Below the pieces are notes generated by a model, which had not been told where the DNA came from, did no database searches, and worked only from the letters and a program-made list of their open reading frames with translations. Below are positions 4,657-27,846 of a stretch of 49,553 bases of DNA, one piece after another. The stretch's first letter is position 1, and every line of letters begins with the position of its first letter. Origin of the DNA: a bacterium (GTDB taxonomy: Bacteria; Patescibacteriota; Minisyncoccia; Phycocordibacterales; UBA6899); contig JAYTCK010000045.1 of the NCBI GenBank assembly GCA_043736515.1, positions 1-49,553 on the forward strand. Direction: 5' to 3'. A program made the translations under genes and the position numbers.

Positions 4657-4662
4657 AGATGT

Positions 4663-5565: not shown

Positions 5566-6620
5566 ATTTGCTCTTTCATAAGTTTCATTAAGCGTACCGC
5601 TGATTCTGCCATAGAAATTTCTGATCCGAACACATGCATGTTATATCCTTCGTTCGCGACAACTTCCATAAGCATTGCTCTCGCCTCTTCTTGTCTCGGG
5701 CCATCACGACGAATCACGATGGGGTAGGTGGGCTTTGGGGTGACCTTGCGCAAACCATCCACGAACCCGGACATTGTTTCAAATATATCTGTAAAGTTTG
5801 CCGTGCCACCGACAACCCATACTCCCTTTAAATTTGGCTGTCCGAGCACGCGCATCGTCAGTTCCTCAACGACCTGCCTCTTCGGGTTTCCTGAATACTC
5901 GACATAGTTTGCGGGCTTTCCACCCGAGCGCATGAGAATGTCGATGTTGAGCATTGATGCTCCGCCCCCTGAGGCGATTACGGCAATGTCTCCGCCAAGT
6001 TCGATAAATGGCCGCTCATTTGTTTCTTTGAGTGCATCATCGTAAATCACTTTTGCATCACCCGCAACAACACTGCCGTCGGCAAACACAAAGAGCGGAT
6101 TGATTTCGGCCATCAGTACTCCCTCTTCACAAAAAAGTTTCCAAAGTTTGTTCACGAGTAGAAAAACATCGTCCGTAATGGGTTCACCAAATGCTTGAGT
6201 GAGCGCTGAATGGGAAAGTCCCGCAAGAATATCAATAGGAATAATTTTTGCATTATGGACACCCGTCCCTCCCCGAGCATTGAGTGCAAGCACGGGAGAA
6301 CGATACGACGTAGAGTACGAAAAACTTACGTACATTTCTGTTTCTGGAACAATCACTTCTTCGGCGAGAAGTAGGGCGGGCAAATATCCGTCAATTGGGA
6401 GCGCAAAAAGCTTTTGTTTTACAGCCACGAATTCTTCGGCGCTTTCAACGAGAACAATCCCCCCTTTTGCTTTTCTGTCACTTGCAGGAACTTGCGACTT
6501 AAGCATGAGCGGGAACGAAAGTGCGGTTTTTTGGGTTTCGGGATGAATTAACTCAAACGCGGGTACTGCAATACCGTATTTTTCAAAAAGCGCCTTCCCT
6601 TCATGTTCGCATATCTTCAT
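5562..6620 (-). CDS. Citryl-CoA synthetase/ATP-citrate lyase beta-like subunit (ATP-grasp plus citrate-binding domain)
   Basis: EHEGKALF and RKAKGG, EINPL, DAK; C-terminal GGGASM, NYVEYSGNP, GGTANFTDI and RRDGP match the ACL citrate-binding domain rather than SucC (NGAGLAM, NFLDVGG). Confidence 0.85.
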   Translation of the reverse strand: MKICEHEGKALFEKYGIAVPAFELIHPETQKTALSFPLMLKSQVPASDRKAKGGIVLVESAEEFVAVKQKLFALPIDGYLPALLLAEEVIVPETEMYVSFSYSTSYRSPVLALNARGGTGVHNAKIIPIDILAGLSHSALTQAFGEPITDDVFLLVNKLWKLFCEEGVLMAEINPLFVFADGSVVAGDAKVIYDDALKETNERPFIELGGDIAVIASGGGASMLNIDILMRSGGKPANYVEYSGNPKRQVVEELTMRVLGQPNLKGVWVVGGTANFTDIFETMSGFVDGLRKVTPKPTYPIVIRRDGPRQEEARAMLMEVVANEGYNMHVFGSEISMAESAVRLMKLMKEQI

Positions 6621-9382: not shown

Positions 9383-10018
9383 CTAAAGCGTTGTGGTATA
9401 TTTGGTTATCTCGACAAGCGCGCGATGAATTTCCTTCACGGGGTCGATGTGCTCAAACGTAGGCAAGATCTCAAGTGGAATCTTGGAGACTTCGTCGACC
9501 GCGGCGAGCGCGACGATCCAACTTGTTGGATCAATATTTGAGTATGTGGATTGCCAGTTCGTAAGCCACGTGCGCACATCAGCATTGTTGGCAATGCATG
9601 CAAGGTCAAAATAGTCTTTGTATTCTTCTCTTCCGCATATCGCAGAAAGTTTCATAATCGTGATGTCCTCTAGGCTCACCATGCGAAACGAGTCAACAAG
9701 AGTGACAGGCTTAAACAGAGGATCAAATCGAGATATGAAAGAAACCTTTACTCCGTCGATATTGCACCACAGTGTATTCTTTTCTTCGAAGATTATTTCG
9801 AGGCGCGCCGCGCCAAACAGCTCGCTTAATCGTCGACGCAGTTTTTCCACATCAATATCCTCAAGGATAAAATAATCAAGATCAGCACTCTTTCTATGCC
9901 CGATGAGCAAAGCAAGTGCCGTGCCTCCTGCAAGATAATATTGCTCGGGGAGTGATGTGAATACAGTCTTTGCGATTGCCAACATCTCAGGACTGACGGT
10001 CTCGTGATGAAGTGTCAT
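9383..10018 (-). CDS. AbiEii/AbiGii-family nucleotidyltransferase (type IV TA toxin-like, DUF1814/MenT-like)
   Basis: YYLAGGTALALLIGHRKSADLDYF signature; later MKLSAICGREEYKDYFD (K..A...R...KD..D). Confidence 0.9.
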   Translation of the reverse strand: MTLHHETVSPEMLAIAKTVFTSLPEQYYLAGGTALALLIGHRKSADLDYFILEDIDVEKLRRRLSELFGAARLEIIFEEKNTLWCNIDGVKVSFISRFDPLFKPVTLVDSFRMVSLEDITIMKLSAICGREEYKDYFDLACIANNADVRTWLTNWQSTYSNIDPTSWIVALAAVDEVSKIPLEILPTFEHIDPVKEIHRALVEITKYTTTL

Positions 10019-11798: not shown

Positions 11799-12557
11799 TT
11801 ACGAAAGCAGTATTGGTATTTTTTGTTTTATATTGGCATTTATGTTTACAATGTCGGGTCGTTTCTTCAAAAAATTAATGACATCTGAAGCAGCAAAATC
11901 ATTGTTCTCTAAATAAAGCGCGTCGTAGACCTCGCTGATCACTCGATAATCTTCTGGAGTATCAAGGGTGAGCCTCAGTTCCGGCCACAGCATCTCCCCT
12001 TTCGCCCGAAGCGCCAATATTTTATATCGCTTCGGGTCCGTCTTGATATGCACTGTCACATGCTCGCGCATTTCTGGGTGTGTTGCTTCGTTATACCCAT
12101 CTTCAAGTGCTTTTATCGTGAATACTGTTGCATCAAATCCGTCGGGTACGGGGGCATCCCCCATCTCATTTGAAACCAAATCAAAATTCCCTTCAAAAAG
12201 TTTAAGGATAAGATCGTCGACAATTCTGTGGTCAACGAGCGGACTGTCTCCCATGCCGCGGTACACGATATCTGCATCACAACTTTTTGCTGCTTCATAT
12301 ACGCGAGCGAGCACATCGGCTTCACTGCCGCGATAACATCGGTACTGACGCTCCGCGCAGAAGGTTTCGATCGCATCATCATTGGGATTGACCGTTGTGG
12401 CGATGATTATCTCATCAATGTATTTACTACGGCTGATACGCTCCACTATACGGGCGAGCACAGGCTCACCCGCAAGTGGCATGAGCACCTTGCCTGGAAG
12501 TCTCGTCGATCCCATGCGCGCGGAAATAGTGGCAATAGCACGTCTTCCGTTAATCAT
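11799..12557 (-). CDS. SpsF-like acylneuraminate cytidylyltransferase-family protein, copy 1
   Basis: ARMGSTRLPGKVL, RGSEADVLAR, REHVT, ELRLTLDTPEDY. Real start MINGRR (12557); the ORF-track extension overlaps the upstream gene. Confidence 0.85.
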   Translation of the reverse strand: MINGRRAIATISARMGSTRLPGKVLMPLAGEPVLARIVERISRSKYIDEIIIATTVNPNDDAIETFCAERQYRCYRGSEADVLARVYEAAKSCDADIVYRGMGDSPLVDHRIVDDLILKLFEGNFDLVSNEMGDAPVPDGFDATVFTIKALEDGYNEATHPEMREHVTVHIKTDPKRYKILALRAKGEMLWPELRLTLDTPEDYRVISEVYDALYLENNDFAASDVINFLKKRPDIVNINANIKQKIPILLS

Positions 12558-12558
12558 G

Positions 12559-13773
12559 TTATTTCTTATTAAAAAATGCGATGGTTTGTTGTAATATCTC
12601 TGCCTGTTTTTCCGCTCGTTCCCACTCCCAATAATTTGTCTTGAATGCGAGAATCTGTTGCTGTACTTTTTCCGCGACAGGACAGAGTCCGGGTTTCCAT
12701 GCTTGGAGGGTACCTTTATAGGTAGCCTTAATAACCTCTTCCTTGCCCGCAAAGTTCATCTCTTGGAACATTGGTTCTTGGTAAGTAAGTTTCCATGTCG
12801 CATAGATACCATCACCACCCAATTCTTTGAATTTCAGACGAAAATCAGCCCAAGAAACAGGTGCGTCGACGAGTCGTACGGCGAGCCCCCAATACACGTT
12901 TTTATATCCTTCTGGTGTGTACTGTGGCACAAGCCAGTCGCATCCTTTCATCGCCTTCATAAACAAGTTTGCCGCATCAATACGTCGCTCTACAAGTTCA
13001 TCCATGCGTTCGATCTGCCCAAGAACCACAGCTGCGCAAAGATCCGGCATGCGATAGTTATAACCCATTGAAGCGTGACGATTGTAATTTGGATTTTGAA
13101 TATCGTCTTTAGAAATCTTGCCTGCTTTTGCAGAAACCGACGCATAGCCAAGAACAGAAAATCGCCGCACACGATCTGCCGCATCGACATCATTCGTGCA
13201 CACCATTCCTCCTTCTCCGGCGGTAAGGTGTTTTGTGCTTTGAAAACTGAAGCTTGAGTAGTGCCCGATTGTACCAGCGAGCCGCCCTTTGTATTCCCCC
13301 AAAAAACACTGCGCATTGTCTTCAATGACTGCGAGGTTGTGCTTCTTTGCAATCTCCATAATGGGATCCATATCAGGTGAGAGTCCATAGAGTGCAACAG
13401 TAATGATGGCCCTTGTTCGGGGAGTAATTAATTTTTCAATCGACTTCGGGTCAATCTGTAATGTCTCTTCGATAACATCCGCAAACACCGGTACTGCATC
13501 CTGTTGCAACACCGCCATTGTTGTAGCAGCCATTGTTAGTGGGGGCACAATTACTTCATCACCAGCCCGAACGCCGGCTGCATACAGCGCAGAGTGGAGT
13601 GTCGCTGTGCCATTGATGTGCCCCACCGAATACTGTACCCCTATACGACCTGAAAAAGCTTCTTCTGCCCTCTTGAGCATTTTAGTATCACGCGGTCCTC
13701 GGAATTGAGAAAGAAGTACTTCTTTTACATATGCTTCTTCCTTTTCACTGATGCGTTTTATGTTGGGTTTCAT
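12559..13773 (-). CDS. DegT/DnrJ/EryC1/StrS PLP aminotransferase, copy 1
   Basis: NGTATLH, GDEVIVP, IEDNAQ, FSFQSTKHLTAGEGG (PLP Lys), GYNYRM. Confidence 0.93.
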   Translation of the reverse strand: MKPNIKRISEKEEAYVKEVLLSQFRGPRDTKMLKRAEEAFSGRIGVQYSVGHINGTATLHSALYAAGVRAGDEVIVPPLTMAATTMAVLQQDAVPVFADVIEETLQIDPKSIEKLITPRTRAIITVALYGLSPDMDPIMEIAKKHNLAVIEDNAQCFLGEYKGRLAGTIGHYSSFSFQSTKHLTAGEGGMVCTNDVDAADRVRRFSVLGYASVSAKAGKISKDDIQNPNYNRHASMGYNYRMPDLCAAVVLGQIERMDELVERRIDAANLFMKAMKGCDWLVPQYTPEGYKNVYWGLAVRLVDAPVSWADFRLKFKELGGDGIYATWKLTYQEPMFQEMNFAGKEEVIKATYKGTLQAWKPGLCPVAEKVQQQILAFKTNYWEWERAEKQAEILQQTIAFFNKK

Positions 13774-15389: not shown

Positions 15390-16457
15390 TTAACCGAGCG
15401 ATTCCCAGTGAATCGCTTCTCCTTCTTCGATATCTCTCTTTGCGGTTAGTCCCGCGACTTCATTTTTGTATTTTGGATAGATACCAAGCGCCGGACGGAG
15501 CTCAATAAGTCGCTCAACACCGATGATTTCGCCCTGCTTGATCGGAGCGGCGGCGTAAAGTGAGCGACGCTGCACAACGACCGTTTCCGACTCTTCGGCA
15601 ACAACTTCTTTGCGTGCACTGCCGAGGGCCGACTCCATATCACGAATCCTTACCATCATCTCGGCAAACTGCTTCGGCTCCATCGAGTGGGGGTGGTCAG
15701 GGCCAGCGTTCTTTTTATCGTCGGTAAAATGCTTCTCAATCACTTTCGCGCCACGTGCAATTGCACCGAGAACTACAGTATCGGAGTGTGTGTGATCGGA
15801 ATAGCCGACCATGACCTCAAATGCTGTCTTATAAGTATCCATCACACGAATGTTCGCACTTTCGATCTTTGAGGGATAATTGGTGATGCACTGAAGAAGC
15901 GCGACGTCTTTATTGCCTGTTGATTCGATCACGCGAAGTGCCTCATCGACTTCGGCAAGCGTGGACGCACCGGTTGCGAGTACGACAGGTTTCCCTTTTT
16001 TTGCAATGTACTCGACCATTTCAAGCCAAGTAATATCGCCCGAACCAATTTTGTAGAAAGGAACATTCGCTTCATCCATAATGTCCACCGCCCCATAATC
16101 ATATGGACTCGATGTGGCGAGGATGCCGATCTCTCGGCAATAGTCGAAAAATTCTTTATGCCACTCGCGTGGAAATTCCGCCGACTTAAATACTTCCTCA
16201 ACCGGCTTGCCCCAACTACCATGTACACCTTTCAGCTTCATTGATGCGAATCCTTTGCCGGAAACTATTTTTTTTGCAAGAAAGCTCTGAATTTTCACAA
16301 CATCCGCCCCGGCTTCTTTAACAAGTTTCGCAAGCTTCTTTGCCTTCTCGATGCTTCCATCAAAATTGCCACCGAGATCCGCGATAACGAGCGCAGGCTG
16401 CCCTTCCCCCACAAGTCGGCTGCCAATCTTAAACGTTTTTGAGAATCTTTCTGTCAT
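15390..16457 (-). CDS. N-acetylneuraminate synthase family (NeuB/PseI/SpsE) with C-terminal SAF domain
   Basis: GADVVKIQ, YKIGSGDIT, LATGA, LLQCITNYP, GYSDHT, IEKHFT, GPDHPHS, RRSLYA, ELRPALG. Start MTERF (16457) follows a GGAAGG SD. Confidence 0.95.
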   Translation of the reverse strand: MTERFSKTFKIGSRLVGEGQPALVIADLGGNFDGSIEKAKKLAKLVKEAGADVVKIQSFLAKKIVSGKGFASMKLKGVHGSWGKPVEEVFKSAEFPREWHKEFFDYCREIGILATSSPYDYGAVDIMDEANVPFYKIGSGDITWLEMVEYIAKKGKPVVLATGASTLAEVDEALRVIESTGNKDVALLQCITNYPSKIESANIRVMDTYKTAFEVMVGYSDHTHSDTVVLGAIARGAKVIEKHFTDDKKNAGPDHPHSMEPKQFAEMMVRIRDMESALGSARKEVVAEESETVVVQRRSLYAAAPIKQGEIIGVERLIELRPALGIYPKYKNEVAGLTAKRDIEEGEAIHWESLG

Positions 16458-16560
16458 GGTATTACCTTCCAAAAATGAATTAATGACTACAAATCTATAC
16501 CGCATCCTACACAGAACAGCAACATTCGCAACAAGAGAAAGGTGACAAATTCACTACTAT

Positions 16561-17112
16561 TTATATCTTCTTGTTCTTCCACTCGCTCCGCAATAAGCCG
16601 AAATGGAGTATATCCTTCCACTTGCCCCCTTTAAATATTGCTTGGCGCGAGCGTCCTTCCTCTTTAAACCCGAGTGCAAGAGCGAGTTTCTGCATCCCCG
16701 CATTATCTTCTGTTGTACCCAAGAAAATACGATTTAAATTGAGCGCAGTGAAACCGTGATTGACAATGAGGTTGGTTGCTTCCCGACCGACTCCCTTTCC
16801 CCAGTATTTTTTGTTGCCAATAACGATTGCGAACTCAGCTGACTGATTGAGTACGTCGATGCTTTGCAGACTGACATTTCCAATGTGTACATCATCTTCT
16901 ATGGTAGCAATGGCAAGGACAAGATTCTCATGCGACTTGATCACATTTTCATAATATTCGCGCATATTTGCATCGTAGTTCGGAAATCTGTGATGTGAAT
17001 TGAATTCACATACATCGGCATCATTAAACCACTCGCGGTAGGTCGCATTCAGGTCCGCCTCAACGAGGGTGCGAAGGTAAACTGTACTTCCGATCAGAAA
17101 AGGATTATTCAT
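16561..17112 (-). CDS. GNAT (RimJ/RimL-type) N-acyltransferase, PseH/SpsD-like role
   Basis: HIGNVSL, AEFAIVIGNKKYWGKGVG, NLNRI, GFKEEG; adjacent to pseB and neuB. Confidence 0.85.
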   Translation of the reverse strand: MNNPFLIGSTVYLRTLVEADLNATYREWFNDADVCEFNSHHRFPNYDANMREYYENVIKSHENLVLAIATIEDDVHIGNVSLQSIDVLNQSAEFAIVIGNKKYWGKGVGREATNLIVNHGFTALNLNRIFLGTTEDNAGMQKLALALGFKEEGRSRQAIFKGGKWKDILHFGLLRSEWKNKKI

Positions 17113-17135
17113 GGTTACGCTTCACAAAACACTCT

Positions 17136-18143
17136 TTATTGATTAATGAGCTGTTCCATTCGATCAACAATACGAAGTAGCTCTTCCTTGGTCATCTTTT
17201 TCTCGGCATTATTACTGGAAAAATGAAAATCTCCAGCTAGGCTTTTTCCGTTTTGGGTAAATTTCTTTAATTTTTCTTGAGTGGCCTCGCTTGCGTGTTC
17301 GGGTAATATCACATAGTAGTCATCCAGCTCTACTGCATGTCGCGATTCCTCGGTGGTCAGCAATATCTCGTGCACCTTTTCGCCAGGCCTTATGCCCATG
17401 ACATTGCGCTTGGCATTCGGGACAATGATGTCGAATAAGTCGCTCACTTTCATGGTGGGGGCCTTCGGAATAAATGTTTCTCCTCCCTCCATGTTTGCAA
17501 GCGCAAACAGAACAATCTCAAACGCCTGCTCAAGATCGATCCAGAAACGTGTCATGCGCTCATCGGTAATATGGACAGTATGGGCATCTCGGTTTTTTAT
17601 CAATTTCTCTACTATGCTGCCACGACTCCCCACCACGTTGCCGTAACGAACGACGCTGAACTTTGTCTCACCTCCATACGCATTACCGGCAACAAATAGT
17701 TTCTCCGCACATAATTTTGTAGAGCCGTAGAGATTGGCCGGCATCGCCGCTTTGTCTGTCGAAACAAGCAATACTTTTTCAACGCCGCGATCAATGGCGG
17801 CCTCGATCACATTTTGACTGCCAAGAATATTCGTCTTTACCGCTTCAAAAGGATTAAATTCGAGAGCGGGCACCTGCTTAAGAGCAGCGGCATGCACCAC
17901 AATATCCACGCCATGAAATGCGCGCTGTAGCCGTGGCAAGTCACGTACATCACCAAGAAAGTAGCGCATTCGCTCATCCTGTATCTCCGCCTCCATGACC
18001 GATTGCTTGAGTTCATCTCGCGAAAATACAATAACTTTCTTTGCATCAGAATTAGCAAGGATATATTTTATGAAATTACTTCCAAAAGAACCGGTTCCCC
18101 CAGTAATGAGCACTGTTTTATTTTTTAATATATTGAGATCCAT
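17136..18143 (-). CDS. pseB: UDP-N-acetylglucosamine 4,6-dehydratase (inverting), PseB/FlaA1 type
   Basis: LITGGTGSFG, FSRDELKQ, HAAALKQVP, STDKA, NLYGSTK, VRYGNVVGSRGS, MTRFWI, GIRPGEKVHE. Confidence 0.92.
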   Translation of the reverse strand: MDLNILKNKTVLITGGTGSFGSNFIKYILANSDAKKVIVFSRDELKQSVMEAEIQDERMRYFLGDVRDLPRLQRAFHGVDIVVHAAALKQVPALEFNPFEAVKTNILGSQNVIEAAIDRGVEKVLLVSTDKAAMPANLYGSTKLCAEKLFVAGNAYGGETKFSVVRYGNVVGSRGSIVEKLIKNRDAHTVHITDERMTRFWIDLEQAFEIVLFALANMEGGETFIPKAPTMKVSDLFDIIVPNAKRNVMGIRPGEKVHEILLTTEESRHAVELDDYYVILPEHASEATQEKLKKFTQNGKSLAGDFHFSSNNAEKKMTKEELLRIVDRMEQLINQ

Positions 18144-18173
18144 AGTGTGTTTTATATTACGGACATGAGGCGT

Positions 18174-19073
18174 TTAAATCAAGTTGGCAATATCCCTTAC
18201 ACGGCGAACGTGAATTATTTCACTAAAGGGCAGTTGTGATTTCTTGCCGGGAGGCGTTATGCTTATCGTCTTTATTCCTGAAAGCGAAGCAACTGCCATG
18301 GCTACCGTTTCAGTACCGATAACTACCCGGGCACGCAAAAGGTCGCGTACAATGTCATTTTCCGTAGATTTTTTTACTTGGATCTGCTTCAGGTACTTTT
18401 TTATAATTGCATCATAGCGGGTACGGTCATCGGCGGGATGAAAGCGGATGTAGAGCGAAAGCGAATTTTTTTTCTTTACCAGTATTGCCAAAAGGGTCTC
18501 AAATATCTGTTCCAATCCTGGGGCAACATCACTCAAAAAGAGAATCCCACGATCTTTCATGTGGGATGCACGCGCATCGCGATAGCGTTTCACAAAAGAG
18601 TGAAAATACTGATTGGGAACCAGTTTAATTTTGGTTTGAGGGAAACAATTTTTTGCTATTACTGATGCGTGTTTATCACCTACCCACATCTCATTAGGAA
18701 GATTTTTTTGCCAGCTTTTTTCAGGATACCCAAATCGCTCGCGGTAGCCGGACCATGATTCGAGATAAACTACTGTTTTCAGGTTATTTTTTTTTGCTTC
18801 TACGAGTGCGTCTCTTTCAATCGTTGTCATCCAGCCTGTTCCCAGGAGCACAAATTCTACATCTTTGTTTTTCTGCACAAGACGTGACAAGCCCTTCTTG
18901 GCAATAGGAACTTTTTTGAATGGAATATCTTCCCTTCGGAAAACTCGCGCGCCTGGTCCAGCCGCGTACACATGAAAATCCTTTTCAAGAAGATGTTTTT
19001 TAACGTACGCCGCAATAATCTCAGATCCCCCCGCATCATGTGTCACCACAAGGACCTTTTTCTTCATAGTCAT
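18174..19073 (-). CDS. GT-B-fold-like hypothetical protein (candidate UDP-sugar hydrolase or nonulosonate transferase)
   Basis: N-terminal VVTHDAGG, central RFHP and C-terminal VIGTETVAM..A...G..TIS pattern resemble the two Rossmann domains of GT-B proteins. Function is inference. Confidence 0.6.
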   Translation of the reverse strand: MTMKKKVLVVTHDAGGSEIIAAYVKKHLLEKDFHVYAAGPGARVFRREDIPFKKVPIAKKGLSRLVQKNKDVEFVLLGTGWMTTIERDALVEAKKNNLKTVVYLESWSGYRERFGYPEKSWQKNLPNEMWVGDKHASVIAKNCFPQTKIKLVPNQYFHSFVKRYRDARASHMKDRGILFLSDVAPGLEQIFETLLAILVKKKNSLSLYIRFHPADDRTRYDAIIKKYLKQIQVKKSTENDIVRDLLRARVVIGTETVAMAVASLSGIKTISITPPGKKSQLPFSEIIHVRRVRDIANLI

Positions 19074-20380
19074 GTTAGCTCTGCACGATTTTCATAAACT
19101 TTGTGAAATGCAGCAATAACATCATCGAGATCTGCTTGCGTCATTCCTGGCCGCATCATGTCATGGGTAAACATTTCTTTTTCATGCAAGCGCTCCACAA
19201 TGGGACACATGCCCTTTTCATAACGAGCTGTACCTTTATAGTATTCGGAGCGAAACGGATATCCTTTAGAGCCAAATGCGATTTGCTTTTGAAATAGCGG
19301 CAACATATAGATCGGTTTTACATACCCTCCACCCATGAGCACGCCCTCCTCCTCCTGAAGTAGCGTCGGGGGAAGCTCTGCATCAATCGCGGCAATAAAT
19401 TTTTCACGAGATACTCCGGTTTTTTCTTCGTCATAGAGAAACGGCTGCATGTAAAATACGTGTGTAGTCCCCGGGCGGACTTTTGCCGGCCTAAAGCCAG
19501 GCATATCCTGAGTGCGCGCATCAATGTATGCACAATTTTTCAGCCGCTCCGCCACCAGACCATCTAATTTTTTGAGCTGTTCGCGACCAATGGCAGCGAT
19601 TACTTCCGTCATCCTGAAATTATGGCCGACCATATTGGCAAGGTTGGTAACCCCCATGTCTCCCACAACTGCTTCGGCGTGATTGCGAATTAGCTGTAGT
19701 CTCTCTGCTAAGTCATCGTCATTCGTGACAACCACAGTCCCTTCGCCCGTATGAATATGCTTATGAAAATTAAGCGAGTACACACCAATATCAGACTGGG
19801 TGCCCGCAAATTTGCCATTATACTTACCACTTGGCACCTGTGCACTGTCCGCAATGACTTTGAGTCCGTGCTTTTTTGCGATCGCGTTTATTGCATCAGA
19901 ATCATGCGCCCCTCCAAAAAGATCAACTACGATAATCGCTTTCGTGCGCGGAGTGATCTTTTCCTCTATAGACTTAGGATCAAGACAGAAATATTCAGGC
20001 TCAACGTCAGCAAAAACTGGCACAGCTCCGTAGAATAAGGGCGCTGTGGCAGAGATGCACATACTATATGGAGTAACGATCACTTCATCGCCCGCCTCAA
20101 TGCCGATAGCTCCCATTGCGGCAATAAGCCCGGATGTTGCCGAGTTCATTGAAATGGCATGCTTCACATTGAATTTTTCACGCCACTCTTTCTCAAATGA
20201 CAGGACTTCGATTCCACCGAGAAACTGTTCGCCGTACGATCCTATAAACTTTGAAAGTGCGCCGCTTTCAATAACGCGCACAGCCGCTTTTTTTTCTTCT
20301 TCTCCTATTGGCTTATAGGCAGGAAACGGTCGGTCCTTTGCGCGCACTGGTGTGCCGCCATTAATGGCAAGTTTTTTCAT
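19070..20380 (-). CDS. DegT-family PLP aminotransferase, copy 2
   Basis: KLAINGG start, NSATSGL, IADSAQ, YSLNFHKHIHTGEG (PLP Lys), GHNFRMTE. Confidence 0.93.
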   Translation of the reverse strand: MKKLAINGGTPVRAKDRPFPAYKPIGEEEKKAAVRVIESGALSKFIGSYGEQFLGGIEVLSFEKEWREKFNVKHAISMNSATSGLIAAMGAIGIEAGDEVIVTPYSMCISATAPLFYGAVPVFADVEPEYFCLDPKSIEEKITPRTKAIIVVDLFGGAHDSDAINAIAKKHGLKVIADSAQVPSGKYNGKFAGTQSDIGVYSLNFHKHIHTGEGTVVVTNDDDLAERLQLIRNHAEAVVGDMGVTNLANMVGHNFRMTEVIAAIGREQLKKLDGLVAERLKNCAYIDARTQDMPGFRPAKVRPGTTHVFYMQPFLYDEEKTGVSREKFIAAIDAELPPTLLQEEEGVLMGGGYVKPIYMLPLFQKQIAFGSKGYPFRSEYYKGTARYEKGMCPIVERLHEKEMFTHDMMRPGMTQADLDDVIAAFHKVYENRAELT

Positions 20381-21360
20381 TATTTTTTAAGTGATCCTAA
20401 TAATCGGTAACAGGTTTCCTGGGTGCGCAATGCCTCTTCAAGGGATGATCTGGGGCTCTCCTTCCCGTCTGCAACGCAAACCACGTGTTCTACCATTCTT
20501 GTCATTGCATCAGCTAATTGCGTTTTCTTTGTTGTGGCTTTTCCAAGTACTCTATCGTCTGGATAAACGGAGTCAGAAATTACCTCCTGAATGACCATCT
20601 GCCTGCCTTCATCGATGAAGCGAATGCGTCTTTTTTCGGTAATGATATCAAACTCAAACACATAGAAACTGCGTTCATCTCCAGTCATAAGATAAAACTG
20701 GGGACAGCGTTCGAAGGTTACTACTCCGCCCATGGAGGGCTCACCGTCAGGAAAGTCGTTTACAATAAAGTGCATTTTCGAGGTCGTTGCTTCACCAAAC
20801 AGATACCGTGCAAGATCAATCATGTGGGACCCGTTGTGCAGTATCCCCTTGGAATAAATACCGCTTGCTGTGAGCACGCTTCCATATCGTCCTTTTATAA
20901 GCGCGTCACGCACCTCATTTACTGCCCCATCAAACCGGCGGCGAAAATTCACGATAACCGGGATTCCTGCTTTTTTTGCTGCACGACGAACTATTTCTAT
21001 TTCACTTTTTTCATTCACCACTGGTTTTTCAACAACTACGACTCTGGGGTTGCGGGCAAGTACATCAAGTAATATTTTTTTATGAGTAGCGTCCGGGGTT
21101 GCAATAACCACGATCTCTGGCCTGAGAACGTTGAGCATTAATTTGTGATCATTAAAATATGCTACCCCCCACTTGTCTGCCTCTTTTTTTCCACGAATTG
21201 CATCTATATCAGAAATGCCCACAAGCTCAGTCCGAACATTATTTGTTAAGGCATGGGCGTGCGTGAGTATACGGCTTGAGTGCGGTTTATCATAGCCCGA
21301 TGCAATCCGCCCCGCACCGATAATCACAGCTTTGTATTTGGTTTGTTTTTTAGAGCTCAT
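20380..21360 (-). CDS. Gfo/Idh/MocA NAD(P)-dependent oxidoreductase
   Basis: AVIIGAGRIA, IATPDATH, VEKPV, VNFRRRF, HNGSHMID. Start MSSKK (21360). Confidence 0.9.
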   Translation of the reverse strand: MSSKKQTKYKAVIIGAGRIASGYDKPHSSRILTHAHALTNNVRTELVGISDIDAIRGKKEADKWGVAYFNDHKLMLNVLRPEIVVIATPDATHKKILLDVLARNPRVVVVEKPVVNEKSEIEIVRRAAKKAGIPVIVNFRRRFDGAVNEVRDALIKGRYGSVLTASGIYSKGILHNGSHMIDLARYLFGEATTSKMHFIVNDFPDGEPSMGGVVTFERCPQFYLMTGDERSFYVFEFDIITEKRRIRFIDEGRQMVIQEVISDSVYPDDRVLGKATTKKTQLADAMTRMVEHVVCVADGKESPRSSLEEALRTQETCYRLLGSLKK

Positions 21361-22108
21361 GTGCTTCTTTTTGTTTAACAGTAGCATTTATTGCTACAAC
21401 TTCGGGATGCATCCGTAAGTGGTTAGTCACATCCGCAACCGTGAAATTTGGATTTGTAATCATCAAAGCATCACAGACGGCGCAGATAGCCTCATAATCC
21501 GAATGCTCATCAAGAGTCATGCGAAACTGGGGGGCAACAAGTTCTGGCGGTGCCACCCAGTTATACGTACGATATTTTTCAGGATGCTTGTATATATAAT
21601 ATGTTACATGCGTGCGATCGATGATGTCATCAGTCAAGCGTGCAACCTCAGCAAGTACGCTGGTCGGAAATACTTGCACCTCAAAGCCCACGGCATAAGT
21701 ATCCTTGATGCAATTTGCCGCATAATCAACATCGTGGGTAAAAAATTCTTCGATACCCCGATCGACAAGCTCAGGGTCGACAAACGGCGAATCCGCCATC
21801 GCTTCAACGATGATGTCGGCATGAACCGATTGAGCCGCTCCGAGTACCCTGCCTAGCACATCGGATTCACTCCCCCTGAACACATCAACTCCGAGTTTTT
21901 TGCCGAGTGCCTCCACCACATCATCGTTACTGTTTGTTGTGGTTGCGATGCATATGCCGTCAAGGTGTGTACTGCGCTTCAGTCTGTTTATCATTACCTC
22001 CAAAACAGGCACCCCGCCGATCGGAAGCAATACTTTTCCCGGTAAGCGCGAGGAGGTCATACGCGCCTCTATGGTTGCAACAATTTTCTCCTTTCTTCCG
22101 TTATACAT
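21350..22108 (-). CDS. SpsF-like cytidylyltransferase-family protein, copy 2
   Basis: EARMTSSRLPGKVL, RGSESDVLGR, RTHVT, RMTLDEHSDY. Confidence 0.87.
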   Translation of the reverse strand: MYNGRKEKIVATIEARMTSSRLPGKVLLPIGGVPVLEVMINRLKRSTHLDGICIATTTNSNDDVVEALGKKLGVDVFRGSESDVLGRVLGAAQSVHADIIVEAMADSPFVDPELVDRGIEEFFTHDVDYAANCIKDTYAVGFEVQVFPTSVLAEVARLTDDIIDRTHVTYYIYKHPEKYRTYNWVAPPELVAPQFRMTLDEHSDYEAICAVCDALMITNPNFTVADVTNHLRMHPEVVAINATVKQKEAHEL

Positions 22109-22123: not shown

Positions 22124-22194
22124 AACTCAAACCTCTTTCTCTAGGTTGCAGTATTATGTTATGGTACATCGAGTTTACGGTGAAATACTATAAA

Positions 22195-23409
22195 ATGAAA
22201 CCCATCGACGCAAAACCATTGTTTGACCATCTAAAGTACTGTACTCGCTGCTGTATCCCTGAGACGCAAGAAGGCATGAAGTTTGACGAGATGGGGATAT
22301 GCCAAGCATGTCAATCTTCCGAACAAAAAATTCATATCAACTGGATAGAGCGTGAAAAACAATTACAAAAAATTCTAGTCGATGCCAAGGCAAAGGCGGG
22401 TTCGAATTACGATTGTATTATCCCGATAAGTGGGGGCAAAGACAGCACGTATCAATTGCACGTTCTTACTAAAGTATATGGCATGAAACCTCTTGCTGTC
22501 ACATTCAGCCACAACTGGTGGAGTGAGACTGGATGGTATAACCTCCAAAATTCGCTAGAGATGTTCAATGTGGATCATATGACCTTCACTCCTAATCGTG
22601 CGCTCATCAACAAATTAGTAAAACGTTCTGTTGCAGAAATTGGAGATGTAAGCTGGCATGATCACGGTGGTGTTGGGTCATTTCCACTTCAGGTCGCGAC
22701 GCGCTTCAAGATACCCCTTCTTATCTGGGGAGAATCACTGGCAGAAAACTCGGGTCGCGCGACATACAATGACCCTGTGCACACCTTTGATAGAGAGTAC
22801 TTTATCAAACAGTCCGCAAAATTACGTGCTGATCAAATGGTGGGGGGGGATATTACTGCCAAGGACATGCATCCATTCGAAGTGCCCAGCCAAGAAGAAA
22901 TTGATGCCGTAGGTGTGTGGGGAATTCACCTCGGTGATTTTCTTTTTTGGGATGATGAGCGTCAAACAGAATTTTTGCGTGACACATATGGGTGGCGCGA
23001 AACAGAGATGGAGGGCACCTACAAGCGATATAAGAGTGTCGAAGATATTATGTACGGTATGCATGATTTTACTTGTTATCTCAAGCGGGGGTACGGAAGA
23101 ACAACAGAACTCGCGAGTCTCGATGTGAGGAACGGTCTCTTGACGCGAGATGAGGGATTCCAATTGATACAAAAACATGACCCGGAGCGGCCGGAGGCAC
23201 TGGATTATTACCTTGCCATTACCGGAGAAACAGAAGCAGAATTTTATGCAAAAATGGAGAGCATTCGCCACCCAAAGATGCGGGGAGTAGACATACCTGT
23301 CAAAGCAAAAACGCACAAAAATTCCGAACGAATTCTCCCTTTTCCCGAGCAACTCATAGCAAAATTTAATCAAAGCGGTGCCAAACGCTCATATATAGAT
23401 CAATTTTAA
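22195..23409 (+). CDS. N-acetyl sugar amidotransferase (WbuX/PseA-like, PP-loop ATP pyrophosphatase)
   Basis: N-terminal CTRC...CQAC, YDCIIPISGGKDS PP-loop, WGES, YLKRGYGR. Start set at MKPID (22195). Confidence 0.92.
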   Translation: MKPIDAKPLFDHLKYCTRCCIPETQEGMKFDEMGICQACQSSEQKIHINWIEREKQLQKILVDAKAKAGSNYDCIIPISGGKDSTYQLHVLTKVYGMKPLAVTFSHNWWSETGWYNLQNSLEMFNVDHMTFTPNRALINKLVKRSVAEIGDVSWHDHGGVGSFPLQVATRFKIPLLIWGESLAENSGRATYNDPVHTFDREYFIKQSAKLRADQMVGGDITAKDMHPFEVPSQEEIDAVGVWGIHLGDFLFWDDERQTEFLRDTYGWRETEMEGTYKRYKSVEDIMYGMHDFTCYLKRGYGRTTELASLDVRNGLLTRDEGFQLIQKHDPERPEALDYYLAITGETEAEFYAKMESIRHPKMRGVDIPVKAKTHKNSERILPFPEQLIAKFNQSGAKRSYIDQF

Positions 23410-23411
23410 AC

Positions 23412-24776
23412 ATGAACCGCTTATTTATCGACAACTCCATTGGAGAGATCATAGAAAAAATACGCACAAAGGAGCTTCTGCCTAGAAATGTAATGGGCGC
23501 TTCGCTTGAAAATATTAATGAGCTCGACAGTAAGTACAAAGCATGGGAAGCATACCGTGACCTAAACTGGCAGGAGCCAAATTTAAAAAATCCCATGGAT
23601 GGACCTGTACTTAGCGGGGCACTGCTTCCCCACATCCCGGTCGGAGTAAAAGACATCTACAATACTCACGACTTCCCTACGCAAATGGGGAGTAGTTTGT
23701 GGAAAGGATTTACTCCAGGAAACGATGCCCGTGCCGTATTTAATCTTAAAAGGCAGGGCGGTGTTGTAGTGGGAAAAACCGTTACAGCTGAATTCGCCGT
23801 ACACGCACTTGAGAAGACACTTAATCCCTGGGATATCACCAAAACACCAGGAACTTCATCGAGCGGATCGGCTGTCGCCGTGTCGCTTGGGCAAGTTCCT
23901 ATTGCAACAGGAACACAAACTGCCGGCTCCATTATTCGCCCCGCAAGCTTTTGTGGTGTTTTCGGGTGCAAGCCCTCTTTTGGGTTCATCCCACGAACAG
24001 GAATGCTCAAAACCACCGACTCGCTCGATACACCGGGTTTTTTTGTTATCCATCAAAAAGATCTCCGTCGAGGTTTTGATTCAATGCGCATAAGTGGAAA
24101 AGATTATCCCGTAAGCGACGCGGCGCTCTCTGACGTTACGCGTCAGCAAAAACATTCTGGACGGCCGTGGCGTGTCTGTTTTGTTAAAACACACACGTGG
24201 CACAATACGCCAAAATACGCAAAAGAGGCTATGGAAAATTTTATACAAAAGCTTTCATCTCAAAAAGGAGTTGTGGTCAGTGAGGCAAAACTCCCGTCAC
24301 AAATGGAGCATGCGCACGAGGTGCACGAAACTATCTACAACAAGGCTCTCTCGTACTATTTTCAACATGAGTATACGCAGGCAAACCAAATTTCTCCAAT
24401 AATGAGGGAGCTTATTGACCGCGGAGAGAAAGTATCACTTGCTGATTACAATCAAGCGATTAGCAGCCAAACGGAAATGATGTACGCTATGGACACTTTT
24501 TTAAAGGATTACGACGTACTCATCTCACTTAGTACCGCAGGCGAAGCTCCTCCCCGTGAAATCGCCGAACTCCCCGATCCGGCACTCATGTGGACGCTTA
24601 CCCACTTACCGGTCGTTTCTGTTCCTCAATTTACTTCGCCCTCGGGACTGCCGTTTGGCATGCAAGTGGTTGCAAGAAAATACAATGACTATTTATTGTT
24701 TGATTTTTTGGAACACATCGCCTCCTTGGGAATTATTCCTCAAAAAGCAGGATTTGCTGTTTCCAACAAGGTCTGA
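23412..24776 (+). CDS. Amidase-signature (GatA-like) enzyme
   Basis: GVKD (catalytic Lys), NPW, PGTSSSGS (cis-Ser), GTQTAGSIIRPASFCGV (nucleophile Ser), GLPFGMQ. Confidence 0.92.
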   Translation: MNRLFIDNSIGEIIEKIRTKELLPRNVMGASLENINELDSKYKAWEAYRDLNWQEPNLKNPMDGPVLSGALLPHIPVGVKDIYNTHDFPTQMGSSLWKGFTPGNDARAVFNLKRQGGVVVGKTVTAEFAVHALEKTLNPWDITKTPGTSSSGSAVAVSLGQVPIATGTQTAGSIIRPASFCGVFGCKPSFGFIPRTGMLKTTDSLDTPGFFVIHQKDLRRGFDSMRISGKDYPVSDAALSDVTRQQKHSGRPWRVCFVKTHTWHNTPKYAKEAMENFIQKLSSQKGVVVSEAKLPSQMEHAHEVHETIYNKALSYYFQHEYTQANQISPIMRELIDRGEKVSLADYNQAISSQTEMMYAMDTFLKDYDVLISLSTAGEAPPREIAELPDPALMWTLTHLPVVSVPQFTSPSGLPFGMQVVARKYNDYLLFDFLEHIASLGIIPQKAGFAVSNKV

Positions 24777-24804: not shown

Positions 24805-26316
24805 ATGAAAATTTGTTTTTTTCTCCAGCGCCGTTTTGCTTACATTGGCCACGCCATGGCATGTAATATTAAAGAGTATTCACCCGGAGCCGAATTTTGC
24901 GCTGTGGTGCAATCGCGATTAAGTCTCGAGTTTATTCAGGCTCAGAAAGATATTACCTATACTTCCGTTCTGTTTGACGAAGATGTGCACCGCACACTTT
25001 ATAAAGAAGAACTTGACCTTGAGTATTTAAAGAGCATTGAAAAAGAATACGGCATCCCAAATCTTTGGCCATACCTCTATATTGATCGCGTCATTATGAA
25101 CGGTCAGCTTGTGCGCGAATACCCTTTCAACCATCCCACACTCTCGTATCGAGACATGCAGCGATGTCTTCAGGTAAACGCAAAAGCAATTATTGAATTT
25201 CTTGAAAAAGAAAAGCCAGACGCAGTTGTCATTTCTGTTGTTGGGTCTGTAGCAAGTACCATGCTCTATCACCTTGCAAAAAAGAAAGGCATCCAGGTTA
25301 TTAATATTGAATTCGCTCGGATCGGGAACCGTATCGCATATTCCGAAGATGATCGAACGTTCACGTGGGTAAAAAAACGCTTTGATGAAATCCAGGGTGG
25401 CCGCGTGTCAGCAGAGTTGGAATCAGCAAAAAAGTTTTTAGCAGAATTTCGTAATAATCCCGCCCCTTACGACGCAGAACATCAGCAAGAATACTATGGT
25501 AAAAAAGGTCGTTTCACGGCCTTGAAATTTTTGCATCCCAAACGACTGAGCAAAAACATTCCGTGGCACATCAAGACGTTTTTTGGTGACATCCGCAAGC
25601 GCAAAAATAAAGACTACATTGATATTTTTATCTGGTGGGCACTGTGGGACAAATTGAATCGTACCATTCGTAGCGTTATTGGCTTCGCGGATTTTTATAC
25701 TAAACCGGATTGGGGAGAGCGATTTGCGTATTTTCCACTCCACACAGAACCAGAAATTGCGATGATGCGCTATGCTCCGTACTACCCAAACCAACAAGAG
25801 CTTATCAGAGCGATCGCGCATGCCCTTCCCATTGATATGCTCCTCTATGTTAAAGAGCACCCGGGTATGGTCGGGTATCGTACACGTGCATATTATAAAG
25901 AGCTGTTAAAAATTCCCAATGTTCGCTTAATCAGCCCGAATGTTCCCGGTAATGATTTATCCCGACAAGCAGCGTTGACCACCACCATAACGAGTACCGC
26001 GGGCTGGGAAGCACTGTTGTGTAAAAAACCAGTAATAACCTTTGGGGACGCTTATTACAACGATGTTCCTGGGGTTTTGCGGTGCCGGGGGTTTGAAGAA
26101 CTACCCCATCTTGTAAAACAGCAATTAAACGAATGGGAAAATAATGATCAAACGCTACTCAATTACATAAGTGCATTATTGGAAGATTCTGTTGCTGTTG
26201 ACTTTGCTGCACTGTGGAATGAGGCAGCCCCCTTTGAAAAAATAGTAAGTGACACGGGTATGATAAATTTATCACGCGTTTTGGCAGATAAAATTAAACA
26301 CAATAAGCCTCAGTGA
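24805..26316 (+). CDS. Capsule polysaccharide synthesis family (KpsS/LipB-like) protein; putative ulosonic acid transferase
   Basis: C-terminal YFPLHTEPE, YVKEHP, TITSTAGWEALL..KPVITFG..YY pattern. Confidence 0.75.
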   Translation: MKICFFLQRRFAYIGHAMACNIKEYSPGAEFCAVVQSRLSLEFIQAQKDITYTSVLFDEDVHRTLYKEELDLEYLKSIEKEYGIPNLWPYLYIDRVIMNGQLVREYPFNHPTLSYRDMQRCLQVNAKAIIEFLEKEKPDAVVISVVGSVASTMLYHLAKKKGIQVINIEFARIGNRIAYSEDDRTFTWVKKRFDEIQGGRVSAELESAKKFLAEFRNNPAPYDAEHQQEYYGKKGRFTALKFLHPKRLSKNIPWHIKTFFGDIRKRKNKDYIDIFIWWALWDKLNRTIRSVIGFADFYTKPDWGERFAYFPLHTEPEIAMMRYAPYYPNQQELIRAIAHALPIDMLLYVKEHPGMVGYRTRAYYKELLKIPNVRLISPNVPGNDLSRQAALTTTITSTAGWEALLCKKPVITFGDAYYNDVPGVLRCRGFEELPHLVKQQLNEWENNDQTLLNYISALLEDSVAVDFAALWNEAAPFEKIVSDTGMINLSRVLADKIKHNKPQ

Positions 26317-26325
26317 CCAACATCA

Positions 26326-27846
26326 ATGAATCATCAAATTAAACAACCTAAGGGGTCGACTGATCCTGTTATTCCCAGTGACATTCTGCAAAAATCACTT
26401 TCTGCTGGCCACTGGTTTTTCCTTGATGTCGTTATGCAGAAAGTCCTTATTTTTGGGTCGTTTTTTATTACTGCAAGACTCCTTACTCCAGAAGATTTTG
26501 GTATTATTGCTTTGGCGATGATCTATCCTCATCTTCTTGATTCACTGACTGCCATTGCGTTTGACCTTGCCATAACGCAGAAAAAAGATGGGGAAGAAAA
26601 ACCCTACCTCAATGCGGTCTGGACATTTAACCTCTTGCGACTTGGCCTTGTGTTCTGTGTTGTTTTTTTGTCCGCTACGTTTGCTGCAGATTTTTTCAAT
26701 GCTTCCCATGCAGTTTTTCTTTTTCAACTAAGCACGCTTCCTCTCCTTTTTCAGGCAATGAGCAATATCGGACAAATATATTTTTTTCGCAATATTGATC
26801 TTAAAAAAGTTTTTATTCGAGATATGTTCCATTATGGAACAGCCGCAGTGGTTTCAATTGTCGGAGCAATACTATTGCATTCATATTGGGCGCTTTTTAT
26901 CGGAAGCGTATCGGGCATCTTCGTTGCGGCAGTATCAACATACTTTCTCAGTAGCTACCGCCCTCGTGTCGATTTCAAACTACAAAAACTGAGACCCTTG
27001 CTCAAATACAGTGAGTGGGTATTTGGACAGGGTATAGTCACTCGCATTGCGCAGACACTCGAAGATACGCTCGTTGGACATTTCACCAATGCAACAAGTG
27101 TGGGGTTCTATAGCAAAGCAAAATCCCTTGCATATGCACCAACTTCCCCTCTTGGAAACATCATCAGTAAAATTGGTTTTTCGGCCATAGTTGCGGTGCA
27201 AGATTCCTTGTCTCGCGTGCGTGAGGGATTTTACAAGAGTTTCGACCTTGCAACCGCTGTCGCCCTTCCTTTTGTTGCGGCGATTTGGATTGCGGGTGAC
27301 CGCTTGGTGTTAATCGTCCTCGGACCTACGTGGCTTGGTATTACCCCCCTTCTCGGGATTCTTGTCGTTGTGGCGGCACTCAATTCTTCAATTCTCAATA
27401 TCTCCACTGCAATGCTAAATGCACTGGGCAAGCCACAGCTTGTGTTTCGATTGAATATGCTTTCACTTGTATGTGCAGTCATTTTTTTGCCGCTGCTCGT
27501 TGTGCAAAATGGGATACAGGGCGCGGCAACAGCGATTCTGCTCACCTCAATAGCAGTAAACACCTACTCTCTGTTTCTCATTAATAAAATTATTGACCCG
27601 AGTTGGATTCGGCTTGGAGGAAGCGCTGCGGTTACTCTTTTCGCTGCGTCACTTCCTCTTTTATTTACTCCCCTACTTCTTAAGTTTGAACTCACCAATA
27701 CCACTTGGGGCTTTTTACTCATCGGAGTATTGATGGGTATTTTGTACATATCAACAATACTATTTTTTGGTAAATTTTTTCAAAAAGGGCCCTACGGTAC
27801 ACTTTTGATAATCCTACAATCTTTTCACAAACGGGGGCAGAAATAA
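26326..27846 (+). CDS. wzx: Oligosaccharide flippase (Wzx/MOP family)
   Basis: ARLLTPEDFGIIALA, about 12-14 TM segments, VGFYSKA, LVLIVLGPTW. Confidence 0.9.
   Translation: MNHQIKQPKGSTDPVIPSDILQKSLSAGHWFFLDVVMQKVLIFGSFFITARLLTPEDFGIIALAMIYPHLLDSLTAIAFDLAITQKKDGEEKPYLNAVWTFNLLRLGLVFCVVFLSATFAADFFNASHAVFLFQLSTLPLLFQAMSNIGQIYFFRNIDLKKVFIRDMFHYGTAAVVSIVGAILLHSYWALFIGSVSGIFVAAVSTYFLSSYRPRVDFKLQKLRPLLKYSEWVFGQGIVTRIAQTLEDTLVGHFTNATSVGFYSKAKSLAYAPTSPLGNIISKIGFSAIVAVQDSLSRVREGFYKSFDLATAVALPFVAAIWIAGDRLVLIVLGPTWLGITPLLGILVVVAALNSSILNISTAMLNALGKPQLVFRLNMLSLVCAVIFLPLLVVQNGIQGAATAILLTSIAVNTYSLFLINKIIDPSWIRLGGSAAVTLFAASLPLLFTPLLLKFELTNTTWGFLLIGVLMGILYISTILFFGKFFQKGPYGTLLIILQSFHKRGQK

Follow-up and report, generated by a model that had tools for sequence, protein, structure and literature searches.

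What supplies the ammonia to a sugar-modifying amidotransferase whose usual ammonia-supplying partners are not encoded beside it? The question is raised by a stretch of 49,553 nucleotides (contig JAYTCK010000045.1 of assembly GCA_043736515.1, here called the window and always meaning the whole stretch) from a bacterium of the Patescibacteriota lineage UBA6899, in which the gene of a WbuX/PseA-type enzyme of the N-acetyl sugar amidotransferase (NASAT) family is followed directly by the gene of an amidase-signature protein. An earlier note on this DNA, made from its letters alone, had suggested that this amidase is a GatA-like glutaminase standing in for the HisH/HisF pair. Our comparisons lead us to consider it likely that the amidase is a dedicated ammonia-generating subunit, which would replace HisH and HisF in the formation of an acetamidino group on a pseudaminic-type nonulosonic acid. 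The WbuX-amidase system itself, as a tight gene pair or a fusion, occurs in hundreds of other bacteria, and comparative genomics of its sequences lends it good support. We found no description of the pairing in the open-access literature searched, although absence there is not proof.

The WbuX-amidase gene pair

The two genes and the motifs on which their assignment depends are as follows.

22195..23409, + strand: NASAT/WbuX-PseA family PP-loop ATP pyrophosphatase, 404 amino acids; proposed synthetase subunit
22240..22311, + strand: Zn-binding tetracysteine CxxC...GxCxxC (Cys16, Cys19, Cys36, Cys39), invariant columns in WbuX alignment A1; codons checked
22429..22446, + strand: PP-loop SGGKDS, residues 79-84, with S79, G80, G81, D83 and S84 invariant in alignment A1; codons checked
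23275..23409, + strand: C-terminal tail of WbuX with the motif ERILPFPEQLI, specific to the core amidase-linked subclade
23412..24776, + strand: amidase-signature enzyme, malonamidase-E2-like, 454 amino acids; proposed ammonia-generating subunit
23649..23930, + strand: catalytic triad of the amidase, Lys80 (23649-23651), cis-Ser149 (23856-23858) and nucleophile Ser173 (23928-23930); codons checked

The sequence of the first protein is that of a bona fide NASAT family member, with a predicted activity of converting N-acetyl to acetamidino groups. It matched the NCBIfam model TIGR03573 ("WbuX, N-acetyl sugar amidotransferase") with 328.6 bits (cutoff 203.2) over model positions 2-343 of 344 and the Legionella pneumophila NASAT (LpNASAT) structure 8WEX, the sole solved member of the family, with E = 1e-40; the Pfam scan matched no model to it. 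Its homologs are 68-88% identical. The hallmarks of the family, defined from the LpNASAT structure, are the PP-loop SGGxDS and the Zn tetracysteine motif (PMC10607449). In the window protein the latter reads CTRC...GICQAC, which fits the family pattern CxxCxn[GN]xCxxC. The open reading frame (ORF) is longer than the gene given above (22156..23409, + strand), with one ATG at 22156 and a second at 22195; the second is likely the true start, since the resulting 404 amino acids agree with homolog lengths of 401-407. The motif ERILPFPEQLI marks the C-terminal tail in the core amidase-linked loci, whereas none of 73 other WbuX ORFs has it, their tails being different; the tail can be regarded as a candidate docking element. 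The stop codon TAA (23407-23409) is separated by the two letters AC from the amidase ATG at 23412.

The second protein belongs to the amidase-signature family, with 218.9 bits against PF01425 (gathering threshold 27), a Gly/Ser-rich signature (GTSSSGSAVAV...GTQTAGSIIRPA) and homologs at 59-78% identity, while all named NCBIfam amidase models scored far under their cutoffs. Residues K80, S149 and S173 align with K79, S154 and S178 of Staphylococcus aureus GatA (SaGatA) and with the triad of malonamidase E2. Among 127 members of the clade the triad shows no variation, and the amidase is therefore predicted to be a working hydrolase rather than a scaffold.

The relation to GatA proved to be more distant. 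Against the GatA model TIGR00132 the window protein reached 176.3 bits, with an equivalog cutoff of 481.1, and mainly its N-terminal 300 residues were aligned. Among solved relatives, malonamidase E2 was the best match by sequence (185 bits, ~32% identity; GatA 119 bits), and a Foldseek search with the predicted model likewise placed malonamidase E2 first (TM-score 0.86-0.87), followed by AtzE (0.83-0.84) and GatA (0.76-0.79). Malonamidase activity cannot be assigned on these grounds, because ~32% identity is too low for transferring substrate specificity. In GatA, glutamine is bound by Tyr309, Arg358 and Asp425 in S. aureus numbering (10.1101/733030). After verification of the SaGatA sequence against PDB 2DF4 and its alignment with the amidase clade, none of these residues was found in the window protein: the segments containing Tyr309 and Asp425 are deleted, as in malonamidase E2, and Arg358 aligns with Ala or Ser. 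Membership among GatA-like glutaminases was thus rejected, given the score under the TIGR00132 cutoff, the absent glutamine-binding residues and the nearer relation to malonamidase E2. Glutamine is still the default guess for the amide donor, although it would have to be bound otherwise than in GatA.

Genes for the usual partners were searched for in the window as well. HisH-like (WbuY) and HisF-like (WbuZ) companions are usual for WbuX, though not family-defining, and do not accompany the WbuX of the window: no HisH (PF00117) or HisF (PF00977) domain appeared in Pfam scans of its 46 large ORFs, and hidden Markov models (HMMs) built from WbuY/WbuZ-type sequences gave no match in window ORFs of at least 70 amino acids at E <= 1e-5. 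Neither were GatB or GatC domains present in the Pfam-scanned window ORFs or in the gene tables of the related loci described below. The description given in the earlier note, that is a WbuX/PseA-type PP-loop enzyme followed after 2 bp by an amidase with intact Lys, cis-Ser and Ser in a window free of hisH/hisF, was borne out in every part by the TIGR03573 score, the gap of exactly 2 nt, Lys80, cis-Ser149 and Ser173, and the negative Pfam and HMM searches. The label "GatA-like" stands for the amidase at the family level alone: in detail, malonamidase E2 is closest by both sequence and fold, and the sequence does not support glutaminase activity specifically.

Partners of WbuX across genomes

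To follow the pair into other genomes, gene contexts were collected from both sides; the counts below refer to the loci listed in these surveys. Five context look-ups (three from amidase homologs, two from those of WbuX) gave seven loci (L001-L007, two near-duplicates), in all of which WbuX is followed directly by the amidase, often with a 4-nt overlap. When a diverse WbuX alignment was run against one genome per GTDB species, at least 80 loci were obtained. In 15 of 15 of those with readable flanks and a WbuX 53-72% identical to that of the window (L008-L022), the amidase lies immediately downstream, with HisH/HisF within 10 kb in 0 of the 15. These loci belong to Desulfobacterales, Desulfarculia, Ramlibacter, Rubrivivax, Selenomonadales, Ignavibacteria, Sulfuricurvum, Acidobacteria, Actinomycetota and Gamma- and Alphaproteobacteria; L001-L022 also include Patescibacteria and Thermodesulfobacteriota, making more than 10 phyla overall. 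Close WbuX relatives are thus followed immediately by the amidase in 22 of 22 contexts (L001-L022), and no HisH/HisF was seen within 10 kb in any of these 22 related loci. The reverse survey, anchored on amidase relatives 41-69% identical to the window protein, gave at least 80 metagenome loci, 70 of them with enough upstream sequence for evaluation. WbuX was directly upstream in 66 of the 70, within ~1 kb or in swapped order in three more, and absent in one. The pair stays together while the order of the neighbouring genes varies between loci, and the association is close to obligate both ways.

We then compared the amidase with HisH/HisF as a partner of WbuX, counting a partner as adjacent when homologs of HisH and/or HisF lay within 1.5 kb. 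Among the 88 WbuX genes in the listed species-genome loci, 60 stand beside HisH/HisF, 15 beside the amidase and 13 beside neither (several of these on short contigs), with 0 beside both; the exclusivity per WbuX gene has a Fisher p of 1.2e-9. In the same loci, identity to the window WbuX falls abruptly from ~52-53% to 39%, and members of the amidase-linked clade are 30-39% identical to HisH/HisF-linked ones. A neighbour-joining tree of WbuX domains, based on BLOSUM distances, unites all amidase-linked sequences and all fusions in one clade, with the HisH/HisF-linked sequences outside. Exclusivity does not extend to whole genomes, a version of the hypothesis that we rejected: both systems occur in L088 (Solidesulfovibrio alcoholivorans) and in L089, with two WbuX paralogs per cluster, one followed by HisH and HisF and the other fused to or followed by the amidase. 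Each paralog has its private partner, as would be expected of enzymes that dock physically to pass ammonia. The check proposed by the earlier note therefore gave a divided answer, positive per WbuX gene (60 with HisH/HisF, 15 with the amidase, none with both) and negative per genome or cluster. Its expectation of a conserved pairing was confirmed across phyla, both from the side of WbuX (22 of 22 contexts) and from that of the amidase (69 of 70).

The two partners also occur as a single polypeptide. About 70 distinct natural WbuX-amidase fusions of several architectures were found, among them 59 distinct proteins of 848-922 amino acids, P0244 at 874 amino acids, and eight three-domain forms of 1123-1183 amino acids, in which a degenerate second WbuX domain lies between WbuX and the amidase. 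On a Desulfarculia chromosome (L015), the fusion is in frame, as an uninterrupted ORF of 869 codons with a Pro/Gly-rich linker. Fusion P0407 comes from the cultured S. alcoholivorans and other fusions from Dehalococcoidia. There are parallel fusions of the classical partners, HisF-WbuX (P0269) and WbuX-HisH (P0271), and the amidase therefore occupies the same domain-fusion slot as the known ammonia-supplying partners. WbuX is fused to a GNAT acetyltransferase in P0467, P0474-P0476, P0479 and P0482, and in P0475 (L090) the GNAT-WbuX fusion is followed by a separate amidase, which ties all three activities together. A GNAT homolog stands directly upstream of WbuX in most related loci.

Some of the surveyed proteins and loci show further features of their own. 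The degenerate second WbuX-like domain, ~27-29% identical to the first, recurs in P0241, P0242, P0246, P0248, P0420-P0437 and P0477-P0502, in L089 (7968-9833) and in L118; it is N-terminal in forms of ~600 amino acids and lies between WbuX and the amidase in those of ~1150. By analogy with LpNASAT, which crystallises as a dimer (PMC10607449), this domain may be a built-in pseudo-dimer partner. Other domains fused to WbuX are Formyl_trans_N (P0468) and, in P0473, one of APS-kinase/AAA_33 type; the former might mean that N-formyl groups are converted too, to formamidino groups. In L088 (14015-16065), the WbuX-amidase fusion is followed by a 436-amino-acid protein of unknown function and two radical S-adenosylmethionine (SAM)/SPASM enzymes, which suggests further unusual sugar tailoring. 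In a metagenome-assembled genome of Thermodesulfobacteriota (L006, 12636-15554), the pair precedes a Maf-type protein (MptE-like, Maf_flag10_N) with TPR repeats, and the modified nonulosonic acid there probably decorates flagellin rather than polysaccharide.

Proposed reaction and competing explanations

Amidotransferases that combine a synthetase with a separate source of ammonia offer several points of comparison. The window WbuX shares its synthetase family and glycan context with WbuX/WbuY/WbuZ of Escherichia coli O145, WbpG-HisH2/HisF2 of Pseudomonas aeruginosa O5, PseA of Campylobacter jejuni, MMP1081-1083 of Methanococcus maripaludis and LpNASAT (8WEX). MMP1081 (PMC2952790) and both WbpG and WbuX (PMC10607449) are genetically required for acetamidino groups. 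The same reaction, ATP-dependent conversion of N-acetyl to acetamidino, is presumed for the window pair. The WbuX/WbuY/WbuZ-type systems employ a HisH-like glutaminase and a HisF-like barrel, whereas the window has a single amidase-signature protein instead, and its synthetase falls into a separate clade with at most 39% identity to HisH/HisF-linked members and with a C-terminal tail of its own. In GatCAB, GatA is likewise a Ser-cisSer-Lys amidase-signature enzyme coupled to an ammonia-needing, ATP-dependent synthetase, but its partner is the kinase-type GatB acting on tRNA, while the partner in the window is a PP-loop enzyme for a sugar, with no GatB or GatC nearby. To our knowledge, GatA is the only established ammonia donor of the amidase-signature type.

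The same logic, in which an ATP pyrophosphatase adenylates a carbonyl and an attached amide hydrolase gives ammonia, is found in GMP synthetase (class I GATase) and NAD+ synthetase (nitrilase-type), although their hydrolase modules differ from the amidase-signature module of the window. The PP-loop synthetases GuaA, NadE and AsnB use interchangeable glutaminase modules, and separate as well as fused forms occur; we know of no report of an amidase-signature module with a PP-loop synthetase. The closest solved relative of the amidase, malonamidase E2 of Bradyrhizobium japonicum (1OBI, 1OCL and others), shares with it the deletions relative to GatA, but is a stand-alone malonamate hydrolase without a synthetase partner, while the window amidase is paired, and its relatives are paired or fused, with a NASAT. 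AtzE-AtzG (1-carboxybiuret hydrolase; 6C62) is another case of a GatA-related amidase-signature enzyme recruited to a new role (TM-score 0.83-0.84); AtzE has retained a GatC-like partner and acts as a hydrolase only, whereas the window pair has no GatC-like gene.

Under the mechanism that we propose, WbuX and the amidase would be two subunits of one amidotransferase. The GNAT enzyme would acetylate an amino group of a nonulosonic acid or of its nucleotide-hexose precursor, and probably installs the N-acetyl group that is subsequently converted. The PP-loop subunit would bind ATP together with a nucleotide-activated 5,7-diamino nonulosonic acid or a UDP-hexose precursor, supplied by the divergent operon described below, and would adenylate the carbonyl oxygen of the N-acetyl group. 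By means of its Ser-cisSer-Lys triad and a pocket that appears malonamidase-like, not GatA-like, the amidase would hydrolyse a small amide donor to release ammonia, which would pass directly to the adenylated intermediate and yield the acetamidino (N-acetimidoyl) group, AMP and pyrophosphate. A single amidase would thus do the job of both the HisH (glutaminase) and the HisF (channel) homologs. The acetamidino sugar might then be transferred, possibly by a BFO_1060-like protein encoded downstream, and flipped by Wzx.

Several points weigh against this proposal. The amidase resembles a stand-alone hydrolase, malonamidase E2, more than it resembles GatA, whose glutamine-binding residues it lacks, and its amidase-signature relatives include deacylases and transacylases such as FAAH and ClbL, both among the solved relatives matched. 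In the window, the GNAT gene is not adjacent to the WbuX-amidase pair. The visible part of the genome is 49.5 kb, so that HisH/HisF genes could be encoded elsewhere, and in L088 and L089 the HisH/HisF of the same cluster could in principle feed both WbuX paralogs. The AlphaFold2 model of the natural fusion P0407 (140-sequence alignment; mean predicted local distance difference test score (pLDDT) 93.8 and predicted TM-score (pTM) 0.80 over 875 residues) is consistent with a fixed two-domain arrangement and in keeping with the proposal, as judged by pLDDT and pTM, figures that do not cover an interface or a tunnel. Finally, the comparisons show directly the domain identities, the intact catalytic motifs, the near-obligate adjacency, the clade-specific exclusivity with HisH/HisF and the fusions, whereas the release of ammonia and its channelling are inferred, as are the donor, the sugar, the modified position and the stage of modification.

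Some of these points would fit other functions of the amidase. As in the alternative given by the earlier note, it might be an N-deacylase or editing enzyme, taking an N-acetyl or other N-acyl group off an amino sugar to make way for a different one, with WbuX taking its ammonia from solution or from HisH/HisF encoded elsewhere. Amidase-signature enzymes do cleave bulky amides (aryl acylamidase and 6-aminohexanoate dimer hydrolase are, besides FAAH, among the solved relatives), the N-acyl groups of nonulosonic acids are varied (PMC5378307), and the missing glutamine-binding residues would fit. Yet a deacylase beside a GNAT would undo the work of the latter, and the nearest fold, that of malonamidase E2, acts on a small substrate. 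Such a function would also leave unexplained why the amidase is found exactly where HisH/HisF are absent, with none of the 88 WbuX genes having both, and why ~70 distinct proteins have it fused to an ATP-dependent enzyme. We regard this alternative as unlikely. An improbable explanation, too, is that the pair carries out chemistry other than acetamidino formation, either by adenylation of a carboxylate or another carbonyl, to which ammonia from the amidase would be added to give a carboxamide, or with the amidase as a ClbL-like transacylase on the adenylated or acylated intermediate. That the WbuX score lies well over the TIGR03573 cutoff, with the PP-loop and the Zn tetracysteine kept, argues against it, as do the GNAT-WbuX fusions, which tie WbuX to a freshly made N-acetyl group, and the parallel with the HisH and HisF fusions, which points to the same overall reaction. 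In its favour are the low identity (30-39%) of the amidase-linked clade to HisH/HisF-linked members and its own C-terminal tail, an extra GFO_IDH_MocA and DegT module of unknown product in the clusters, and the amide-bond-forming ClbL-type amidase among the solved relatives. Neither alternative explains an amidase that occurs exactly where HisH/HisF are missing and is fused to an ATP-dependent enzyme.

There is very little probability, in our view, that the adjacency has no functional meaning and the amidase is a passenger in a mobile glycan cassette. Glycan clusters are indeed mosaic and horizontally transferred, and both proteins are unusually conserved across phyla (60-88% identity), as for a mobile cassette; but the pair is kept despite changing gene order (22 of 22 contexts starting from WbuX, 69 of 70 starting from the amidase), the triad is invariant, and the repeated fusions effectively refute a passenger role. 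In the proposal of an ammonia-generating subunit, the part of the earlier note by which the amidase replaces HisH/HisF as the partner of WbuX is retained, with conservation, exclusivity, a single clade and fusions in its favour, and the part by which it is specifically a glutaminase is not supported, for want of the glutamine-binding residues of GatA.

We lean slightly towards a broader account, in which a malonamidase-E2-like enzyme was recruited, independently of GatA, as the ammonia module of a PP-loop sugar amidotransferase. Among known amidotransferases it would be the second of amidase-signature type and the first of that type with a PP-loop synthetase, possibly with a donor other than glutamine; together with GNAT it would form a three-step line of acetylation, adenylation and amidination that decorates the nonulosonic acids of Patescibacteria and many anaerobes. 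Modular enzyme evolution has a textbook example in the amidotransferases, in which few glutaminase folds are combined with many synthetases; for the amidase-signature fold, GatCAB is so far the single case. If true, a second and widespread case with a PP-loop partner would be a new combination of modules, available in split and fused forms, and a tractable system for the origin of ammonia channels. In glycan clusters, genes now labelled "amidase" or "GatA family", of which there are hundreds, could be annotated more precisely, and so could the ~870-amino-acid proteins labelled just "N-acetyl sugar amidotransferase". A further prediction is that Patescibacteria, sulfate reducers and others bear nonulosonic acids with positively charged acetamidino groups on their surfaces or flagella; such groups matter for phage recognition and surface charge. 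The cultured carrier S. alcoholivorans makes the hypothesis directly testable.

The surrounding surface-glycan island

The whole 49.5-kb window is a surface-glycan island. The pair heads an operon on the + strand, and a divergent operon with genes for nonulosonic acid synthesis lies upstream of it.

15390..22108, - strand: divergent nonulosonic-acid operon (family matches), comprising the next seven genes
15390-16505, - strand: NeuB/PseI-like synthase (family match)
16561..17112, - strand: GNAT N-acetyltransferase (Acetyltransf_3; weak PseH similarity)
17136-18143, - strand: PseB (423 bits, cutoff 407.75)
18174-19073, - strand: conserved 299-amino-acid protein (no Pfam match)
19070-20380, - strand: DegT aminotransferase (family match)
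20380-21387, - strand: GFO_IDH_MocA oxidoreductase (family match)
21350-22108, - strand: CMP-sugar cytidylyltransferase (family match)
24805-26316, + strand: Capsule_synth/BFO_1060-like protein, 503 amino acids (weak matches to Capsule_synth, PF05159, and to the BFO_1060-family glycosyltransferases)
26326-27846, + strand: Wzx flippase (family match; gene order as in L001, same genes in L004)

The gene set of the nonulosonic-acid operon is also found beside the WbuX-amidase pair in L001-L022. The Capsule_synth/BFO_1060-like gene directly follows the amidase and is kept next to Wzx in L001 and L004; judging from its sequence matches, its product is a candidate nonulosonic acid transferase. Further downstream, the + strand operon contains genes for a C-methyltransferase, an aldo-keto reductase, Gmd and a GT4 glycosyltransferase. 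For WbuX and the amidase alike, the named homologs that come closest are from Patescibacteria (Kaiserbacteria, Minisyncoccia, Paceibacterota), and the metagenomic contig L001 is syntenic with the window over more than 20 kb.

Within the - strand operon, the 299-amino-acid protein (18174-19073) has homologs in L001, L004, L009, L011, L012, L020, L022 and L030, where they travel with the DegT and GFO_IDH_MocA genes. No PDB entry was matched by a profile of nine sequences, and four of the nine gave a weak match to TIGR04396 ("surface carbohydrate biosynthesis protein"); the protein might be the otherwise missing UDP-sugar hydrolase, equivalent to PseG. The genes for GFO_IDH_MocA, DegT, GNAT, WbuX and the amidase form a sub-module atop the PseB/DegT/NeuB set in many clusters, such as L011, L020, L022 and L009 (in the window, 19070-21387). 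It resembles the logic of WbpB-WbpE-WbpD-WbpG, and we speculate from this analogy that the sugar gains one more amino group, which is then acetylated and amidinated, perhaps giving a triamino nonulosonic acid.

Other genes of the island were noted in addition. A split enzyme of the ATP-citrate-lyase/citryl-CoA type is encoded at 3949-6620 (- strand) by genes with a citrate-synthase C-terminal domain, CoA_binding and Ligase_CoA domains, and ATP-grasp_2 and Citrate_bind domains. The trio is also present in two other Patescibacteria-like loci, L001 (1-2093) and L003 (5439-8151), where it directly adjoins GNAT-WbuX-amidase or PseB genes; it could be a source of acetyl-CoA or another acyl-CoA for sugar N-acylation under minimal metabolism. 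An AsnB-type glutamine amidotransferase (GATase_7 and Asn_synthase; 37445-39307, - strand) is flanked by a GT2 gene and three SAM methyltransferase genes and gives the island another amidation activity, self-contained and probably directed to a uronic acid amide. Between glycan genes lies an AbiEii-type nucleotidyltransferase toxin of the type IV toxin-antitoxin/abortive infection class (9383-10018, - strand). A second cytidylyltransferase ORF (11799-12752, - strand) has a TTG start and overlaps the upstream DegT gene (12559-13773, - strand) by ~190 nt; its Pfam match begins at residue 72-74, and the true start is probably ~70 codons further in.

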